Part shown: piece after piece, positions 31,477-31,943 of the stretch
Layout: the number at the start of each line of letters is the position of its first letter
Position numbering within the stretch: position 1 is the stretch's first letter
Source: an uncultured Caulobacterales bacterium
GTDB lineage: Bacteria; Pseudomonadota; Alphaproteobacteria; Caulobacterales; Maricaulaceae
NCBI GenBank assembly: GCA_937927825.1
Contig: CALFWV010000042.1
Location: 9,980 to 73,979, forward strand
Length of the DNA: 64,000 nucleotides
Reading direction: 5' to 3'
Notes under the pieces: model-generated
The model's database searches: none
Told to the model about the DNA's origin: nothing
What the model saw: only the letters and a program-made list of their open reading frames with translations
Translations under genes and position numbers: made by a program

Positions 31477-31550
31477 AAGGTTTATCTGTGTTGGTTCCGG
31501 CGGCGGGTCAAGACCCGGTCTTCCGGGTCCGGATAAGATCATCCGCGTAA

Positions 31551-31594
31551 CTGTGACACATGTTTCATATCGGTGTCACGTTCCTGTCACATCG
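31551..31594 (+). promoter_or_regulatory. Pho box array (four 11-bp-phased repeats)
   Basis: CTGTGAC-ACAT / GTTTCAT-ATCG / GTGTCAC-GTTC / CTGTCAC-ATCG; exact 11-nt period matching the PhoB CTGTCA(T/C) direct repeat. Confidence 0.72.
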
Positions 31595-31624
31595 AAGCTG
31601 CAACACAGAGCTCATATACTCTGA

Positions 31625-31729
31625 TTGCCAAAGTCCTTCTCTTTCCCGGAAGCTGACTTTGTAAACTAGGCCGCTCCGCAAAGACCCCCTTTCCCCTTGG
31701 TTTTGTCTCGCGGAGCGGCCCTTTTTTTT
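31625..31729 (+). ncRNA. Candidate small RNA 1 (two hairpins with CU-rich loops, intrinsic terminator)
   Basis: CAAAGTC/GACTTTG stem with loop TCTTTCCCG; 11-bp GGCCGCTCCGC/GCGGAGCGGCC stem with CCCCCTTTCCCCTT loop, followed by CTTTTTTTT; no credible ORF. The 5' end is approximate. Confidence 0.68.
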
Positions 31730-31809
31730 GGCTCTGCTCAAATATGAACCCTTTGTCATAAACTGGAAAAGGTCCCGACAGGTTAAGGATGTCATTTGTA
31801 ATTCATACG

Positions 31810-31911
31810 GTCCGTTGGCTGCGGTGATACCTCCCCCAACCCAGCACTGACAGCGTAAAGGCGGCCCAGATTGAAAAGACCCGCATTGGCATATCCGATG
31901 TGGGTCTTTTT
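31810..31911 (+). ncRNA. Candidate small RNA 2 (CCUCCCCC loop hairpin plus terminator)
   Basis: GCTGCGGTG/CACTG-A-CAGC stem with loop ATACCTCCCCCAACCCAG, then terminator AAAAGACCCGCATTGG-CATAT-CCGATGTGGGTCTTTTT. The 5' end is approximate. Confidence 0.55.
31874..31911. terminator. Bidirectional intrinsic terminator (candidate sRNA2 and ABC1 kinase gene)
   Basis: 12-bp stem flanked by A4 and T5. Confidence 0.82.
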
Positions 31912-31943
31912 GCATTCAGTCGACCCCAACATAAAATATTATT

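Follow-up and report, generated by a model that had tools for sequence, protein, structure and literature searches.

Sequence comparison shows that a genuine gene for a structured and conserved non-coding RNA occupies positions ~31614 to 31729 on the plus strand of the window, by which we mean the whole 64,000-nucleotide stretch of DNA analysed. With moderate confidence we read it as an independent gene for a PhoB-activated, trans-acting small RNA (sRNA) of the anti-Shine-Dalgarno type, whose loops would block ribosome-binding sites. The features on which this reading is built are collected in Table 1.

Table 1. Predicted features of the sRNA locus and of the second sRNA gene downstream.
Feature	Position	Strand	Details and basis
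Four Pho half-sites (two Pho boxes)	31552..31590	+	TGTGAC 31552, TTTCAT 31563, TGTCAC 31574, TGTCAC 31585
Inferred -10 hexamer	31602..31607	+	AACACA, 11 nt past the last half-site
Predicted sRNA transcript	31614..31729	+	~116 nt; 5' end inferred; a start at 31625 would mean 105 nt
Hairpin 1	31629..31661	+	apical loop CUUUCCC at 31641-31647; fold and covariation
Hairpin 2 (terminator stem)	31669..31720	+	G-C-rich 11-bp base and inner helix; fold and covariation
U8 tract, intrinsic terminator	31722..31729	+	one C between hairpin 2 and U8
Second-sRNA promoter element	31753..31798	+	TTGTCAT / TGGAAAA / CCGACAG in 11-bp phase, 11 nt, CATTTG
Second sRNA gene	31805..31915	+	loop AUACCUCCCCCAACCCAG, terminator 31873-31911; fold and conservation

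The folding energy of the unit was compared with that of shuffled sequences of the same dinucleotide content. RNAfold gave a minimum free energy of -40.3 kcal/mol for 31629-31729 (+), as against -23.6 +/- 3.5 kcal/mol for 200 dinucleotide shuffles, none of which was as stable (z = -4.72). Hairpin 1 has a stem of 12 bp with a single 2-nt bulge, and its loop reads UCUUUCCCG if the closing U-G is counted as unpaired. The base of hairpin 2, formed by GGCCGCUCCGC and GCGGAGCGGCC, consists of 11 consecutive pairs, G-C in 10 of the 11, and above it the inner helix closes an exposed C/U-rich apical region, CCCCCUUUCCCCUU (31685-31698). A simple terminator scan left hairpin 2 unflagged because the loop limit of that scan is 8 nt. 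An earlier reading of this DNA, made from the sequence only, had described two hairpins with CU-rich loops, the 11-bp stem with its 10 G-C pairs and the U8 run, all of which are borne out by sequence and fold.

That sequence-only reading had also named a homolog search with covariation as a check on the candidate. The search came out in favour of the unit: at least 15 further species of the same GTDB genus (Algimonas-like, Caulobacterales) carry the sRNA gene, and compensatory (both-side) changes were found in 21 of 30 pairs in a model-guided alignment of 10 species, an alignment that leans towards the model. DNA BLAST recovered only two homologs, more were obtained with a covariance model made from three sequences and then rebuilt, and diverged copies were added by reading the loci around a second sRNA gene that lies downstream. 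The covariance model matches the window over 31620-31732 with 120 bits, and a search with it found the sRNA to be single-copy in its own genome. The combination of sRNA and Pho boxes was found only within one Caulobacterales genus.

Each homolog, when folded alone, gives the same layout. An optional 5' mini-hairpin and a C-rich single strand precede hairpin 1 with its C/U-rich loop; then come the linker AAACUGG, the long hairpin 2, whose apical region is C/U-rich, and a run of U. A single-stranded ACCCC stretch is present towards the 5' end in most relatives. The run of T residues after hairpin 2 lies on the plus strand of the homologs, with none on the minus strand. In some relatives (AAAUUUUCU) the U tract has a length of just 4-5, which makes read-through possible there. 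In the same 10-species alignment, with its lean towards the model, 89% of the cells were paired, as against 35-40% when the partners were slid by 1-3 columns, and 0 of 500 shuffles reached the observed values. The compensatory pairs were found in hairpin 1 (10/13) and in both the basal (7/11) and the inner (4/6) helix of hairpin 2. A MAFFT alignment made from sequence only likewise yielded the basal stem of hairpin 2, in which 7 of the 12 pairs were compensatory. While the stems vary, the C/U-rich core of the loops (e.g. CUUUCCC, CUUCCCC) stays and remains single-stranded, which is the pattern that would be expected for a base-pairing seed.

Several other matches were set aside. L012, L016, L017, and L018 were rejected as terminator-type false positives, and the membership of L015 (genome G156) is doubtful, its Pho-like boxes lying too near the hairpin for a normal promoter. 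Weak order-level covariance matches outside the genus (L142-L145 and L147; 30-39 bits, in other genera and a neighbouring family) were not counted as members. These matches have two hairpins with C/U-rich apical loops, e.g. CACUCCCCUGUCCCUCG and CCCCCUCGUUUCCUCCCGG, and no Pho boxes, and those examined in detail seem to be located where coding regions end; either distant kinship or convergence among 3'-UTR sRNAs may account for them. Another sRNA-like hairpin, with a sigma-70-like promoter and no Pho boxes, is shared by two relatives, L151 (G017:C4:574056-574142) and L152 (G018:C73:8273-8358) being homologous to each other; its loop reads CUCUCCCCUCCCUCG in G017 and UUCUCCCUCCCUUG in G018, and the window's genome yielded no counterpart. 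Several C/U-loop sRNAs seem to be present in the genus.

The gene neighbourhood and the coding potential of the unit were examined next to its structure. The upstream neighbour, a gene for an MBL-fold hydrolase, is divergent and the downstream neighbour, a gene for an ABC1 kinase, is convergent; the unit is therefore neither the 5' leader nor the 3' UTR of a protein gene. No conserved ORF was seen when the sequences from the window, G017, and G018 were compared, the short frames being a TTG frame of 14 codons in the window and an ATG frame of 37 codons in G017. The unit thus combines what is looked for in the gene of a trans-acting base-pairing sRNA: its own predicted promoter, an intrinsic terminator, a conserved structure, and no conserved ORF seen. 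On the minus strand upstream of the hydrolase gene, within 31507-31537, a -35-like TTGACC is kept across relatives and forms part of a small hairpin (GACCCGG AAGA CCGGGTC); this element probably serves the hydrolase gene as a housekeeping promoter of its own.

The Pho boxes that the sequence-only reading had pointed out proved to be the best-scoring array of the genome, with four half-sites in exact 11-bp phase directly upstream of the sRNA. For this comparison four TGTCAY-like hexamers at 11-bp spacing were scored at every position of the 2.55-Mb genome; the array scored 22/24 and was the sole one to reach 20/24, a level reached by no array in three shuffled genomes. Perfect TGTCAY-N5-TGTCAY boxes occur just twice genome-wide, once within the sRNA array and once ahead of a gene for a TonB-dependent receptor. 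This second perfect box, TGTCATAACACTGTCAT (C138:12316-12332), lies 55 nt upstream of the receptor-like gene, which its position makes a likely member of the Pho regulon. Among the homologs, the Pho array is present with the RNA in every carrier examined, bar the doubtful L015, and in G021 a much-diverged RNA stands behind textbook boxes (CTGTCAT-N4-CTGTCAT-N4-CTGTCAA) followed by TATATA. The second sRNA and the gene for the hydrolase are retained in two relatives, G015 and G007, that have neither the first sRNA nor the boxes. The boxes are thus absent together with the RNA while the hydrolase is kept, which indicates that they belong to the RNA and not to the hydrolase.

The position of the transcription start was estimated from the homologous promoters. 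At the offset of the -10 element these carry AAGTAT, AAGATT, AAAGAG, AAGAAA, AAATAG, AATACA, TATACA, or CATAGA; the A at the second position is invariant across 10 homologous promoters, and the TATATA of G021 follows a 9-nt spacer. The inferred -10 of the window is weak, and a CAUAC motif is conserved 6-7 nt after it. Because of the aligned -10 hexamers and this conserved motif, transcription likely starts near 31614 and not at 31625. A -10 of TATACT and a start at 31625 had been proposed previously, and comparison with the homologous and pst promoters suggests that both are probably about 11 nt off. The earlier placement of a unit of ~105 nt directly after the Pho boxes accordingly holds for its position and not for its start, which likely lies ~11 nt further upstream.

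We also compared the array with the promoters of the pst operon, the canonical PhoB target, in Caulobacter as well (PMC10294691). The pst promoters of 10 relatives have TGTCAT/TGTCAC half-sites on the coding strand, as in the sRNA array, and a -10-like hexamer, CATAGC/CTTAGC, ~11 nt past the last half-site, the same offset as that of the predicted -10 of the sRNA. The pst promoter of the window's own genome reads CTGTCAT..TTGTCAC..TTGTCAT on the coding strand, with a poor hexamer at the -10 offset. The sRNA array shares its half-site, its strand sense, and its spacing to the putative -10 with the pst operon promoters of the genus. At least two direct TGTCA-type repeats with an 11-bp period on the non-template strand, the signature by which a Pho promoter is recognized, are found here, and the assignment of the sRNA promoter as a predicted Pho-regulon promoter is well supported at the level of sequence. 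The genome encodes PhoB, whose score of 334 bits exceeds the curated cut-off, as well as Hfq, together with at least six other full-length OmpR-family regulators. The phoB gene lies on contig C159 directly after a histidine-kinase-like gene, probably phoR. The pst locus (C117:6780-12884) comprises a porin-like gene, pstS, pstC, pstA, pstB, and phoU, with the Pho boxes ahead of the porin gene, and a second PhoU-domain gene is found on C82.

The second sRNA gene forms a tandem with the first, on the same strand and with ~75 nt between them. Its nested stems present the C-rich loop given in Table 1, and this structure is kept in the aligned relatives. Scores of 65-113 bits were obtained with a covariance model of the second sRNA (R3) in 15 genomes, all from the genus and the window's own among them; two of the 15 are without the first sRNA. 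There was no Rfam match for the second sRNA. The promoter element of the second sRNA is kept in all relatives, including those two, with the consensus TTGTCAT / TGGAcAA / cTGACAG, 11 nt, CAnnnn. This is PhoB-type geometry with differing second and third heptamers, and a response regulator other than that of the first sRNA may act on this promoter. Assignments of the element as a sigma-54 or EcfG promoter, or as a minus-strand Pho promoter that drives the hydrolase mRNA or an antisense transcript, were rejected on spacing or consensus. A search for further copies of the element in the genome yielded nothing interpretable, and an exact-pattern scan with the core of the second sRNA (16 specified bases) was too unspecific, giving mostly chance matches.

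In the mechanism that we propose, phosphorylated PhoB would bind the two Pho boxes at low phosphate, standing in for a -35 element, and would recruit RNA polymerase to the weak -10. Transcription would stop at hairpin 2 and the U8 tract, giving an RNA of ~116 nt whose exposed, unpaired C/U-rich segments are the hairpin 1 loop, the apical part of hairpin 2 and, for most relatives, the 5' ACCCC stretch. These segments would pair with G/A-rich ribosome-binding sites of the GGGGAAAG or GGGAGAG type and thereby repress translation from a number of mRNAs under phosphate starvation, with Hfq probably occupying the terminator and the U tail. The anti-Shine-Dalgarno mode of action is suggested by the loop sequences and by analogy with alphaproteobacterial sRNAs. 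Shine-Dalgarno sequences of the types named are frequent in the genome, so that many mRNAs are potential partners. Neither RNAduplex, run against ~18,700 candidate start regions, nor a motif scan found a specific conserved target, both being noisy because G/A-rich Shine-Dalgarno sequences are common in the genome. The best pairing, with the amtB ribosome-binding site CAGGGGAAAGCAUAUG, received no support: the site is conserved in close carriers and equally so in two relatives that are without the sRNA, and it is a generic Shine-Dalgarno sequence.

Alternative explanations concern both the signal that drives the gene and the gene that the boxes serve. The RNA gene could be real and its boxes read by another response regulator of the OmpR/PhoB family, so that the signal would not be phosphate. 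In its favour are the six or more further full-length OmpR-family regulators of the genome and the promoter of the second sRNA, which, with the same three-heptamer geometry and other heptamers (TGGAcAA, cTGACAG), demonstrates that related sites exist; however, the TGTCAY half-site, the strand on which it reads, and how far it stands from the putative -10 are as in the pst promoters of the window's genome and of 10 relatives, and we regard this alternative as unlikely. It is very improbable that the Pho boxes control the divergent MBL-fold hydrolase, with the hairpins being incidental structure or a stray terminator. The boxes do lie within ~75-110 bp of the hydrolase start codon at 31478, but they point away from that gene, which has its conserved TTGACC element closer to the start and is kept without the boxes where the RNA is absent, and the covariation indicates selection on the RNA structure itself.

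Two further alternatives accept PhoB control or the RNA gene and assign the product another role. The unit could act as a leader or attenuator, in which case Pho transcripts would pass hairpin 2 into the second sRNA, making the output of the latter phosphate-dependent or producing a longer two-domain RNA. This would fit with the location of the second sRNA a short distance downstream on the same strand and with the short U tract of several relatives. The second sRNA, however, has its own strongly conserved promoter element and occurs without the first in G015 and G007; moreover, the terminator of the window is strong and the loops of the first sRNA are conserved in their own right, leaving a low probability for read-through as the function. 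The RNA could also be a decoy, using its C/U-rich loops as a sponge for a G-rich sRNA or as a protein binder and not for pairing with ribosome-binding sites. That no specific mRNA target emerged from the scans is in keeping with such a role, and Caulobacter has a known sponge RNA, CrfA (PMC12559287). On the other side, no G-rich partner RNA was seen, and the translation-repressing sRNAs of Alphaproteobacteria usually have several C/U-rich loops as their seeds; we consider the decoy role quite improbable. A PhoB-activated sRNA acting on ribosome-binding sites remains our preferred reading.

We put forward more tentatively, as a possibility that we rate somewhat below even, that the sRNA is the founding member of an undescribed family of PhoB-activated riboregulators in marine Caulobacterales. 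Paired with the second, C-rich sRNA, it would make up a tandem module with two inputs, by which the translation of mRNAs for transporters and the envelope would be retuned once phosphate is exhausted. If this is true, the tandem module would give the Pho regulon its RNA arm, something not firmly established in Proteobacteria. The OmpR, PhoP, and CpxR two-component systems have well-known sRNA arms. PhoB-dependent sRNAs are barely documented in the literature searched, and the sRNA described here is absent from Rfam and from that literature. The lineage is a marine oligotroph, for which phosphate limitation is ecologically central, and a cleanly delimited sRNA gene behind the strongest Pho-box array of the genome makes the question directly testable.

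Comparison with known RNA families supported the claim of the sequence-only reading that the unit matches no described family. The Rfam search that it had suggested as a check gave nothing above threshold: with Rfam 15 at the gathering score, there were no matches in the whole window or in 14 homologous loci. At E <= 10 just two families, MmgR and sX13, cover the unit, with 19 and 13 bits respectively. Membership in MmgR (suhB; RF00519) was rejected: the score, 19.1 bits (E = 0.16), falls short of the gathering score of 41 bits, the match depends largely on the terminator and requires an insertion of 33 nt, and hairpin 1 is not accommodated. The likeness to MmgR, also known as alpha-r8, is that of an alphaproteobacterial sRNA in which a C/U-rich stretch is followed by a G-C-rich terminator. 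AbcR1/AbcR2 of the Rhizobiales and the cuckoo RNAs (CcsR / alpha-r14) are short stand-alone sRNAs whose C/U-rich motifs pair with ribosome-binding sites; they have at least two single-stranded motifs, often in tandem, and a terminator hairpin at the end. The sRNA differs from them in its regulator, as indicated by the Pho boxes, and in its motif, which is CUUUCCCC here and CCUCCUCCC there, and the AbcR and cuckoo families were absent among the Rfam matches even at E <= 10.

Within the same bacterial order, the C-rich-loop sRNAs AbnZ and ChvR of Caulobacter crescentus offer a parallel, although no sequence likeness to either was detected. AbnZ carries its activity in C-rich hairpin loops, represses translation of tamAB, and is 3' UTR-derived and Hfq-independent (PMC11724286); ChvR is likewise described as Hfq-independent (PMC6237742). 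No PhoB-controlled sRNA was reported in the passages of the Caulobacter sRNA literature consulted, those on AbnZ and ChvR included. Phosphate-responsive sRNAs of S. meliloti are known through transcriptomics, and a 2026 review of signal-responsive sRNAs cites PhoS alone for phosphate starvation, with PhoB unmentioned. PhoS of Bacillus is a phosphate-responsive RNA from the phoPR 3' UTR (PMC11522486), sRNA132 of Haloferax is a phosphate-responsive sRNA (PMC6560208), and EsrL of E. coli is disputed, PhoB binding at esrL not having been reproduced by ChIP-seq in K-12 (PMC10294691). What the sRNA would have in common with these three is a place in the phosphate response as its RNA arm, with transcription linked to the two-component regulator for phosphate, whereas the organisms, sequences, and architectures are unrelated. 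By analogy, the kind of RNA is most likely a familiar one, that of the two-component-driven, C/U-rich anti-Shine-Dalgarno sRNAs of Alphaproteobacteria.
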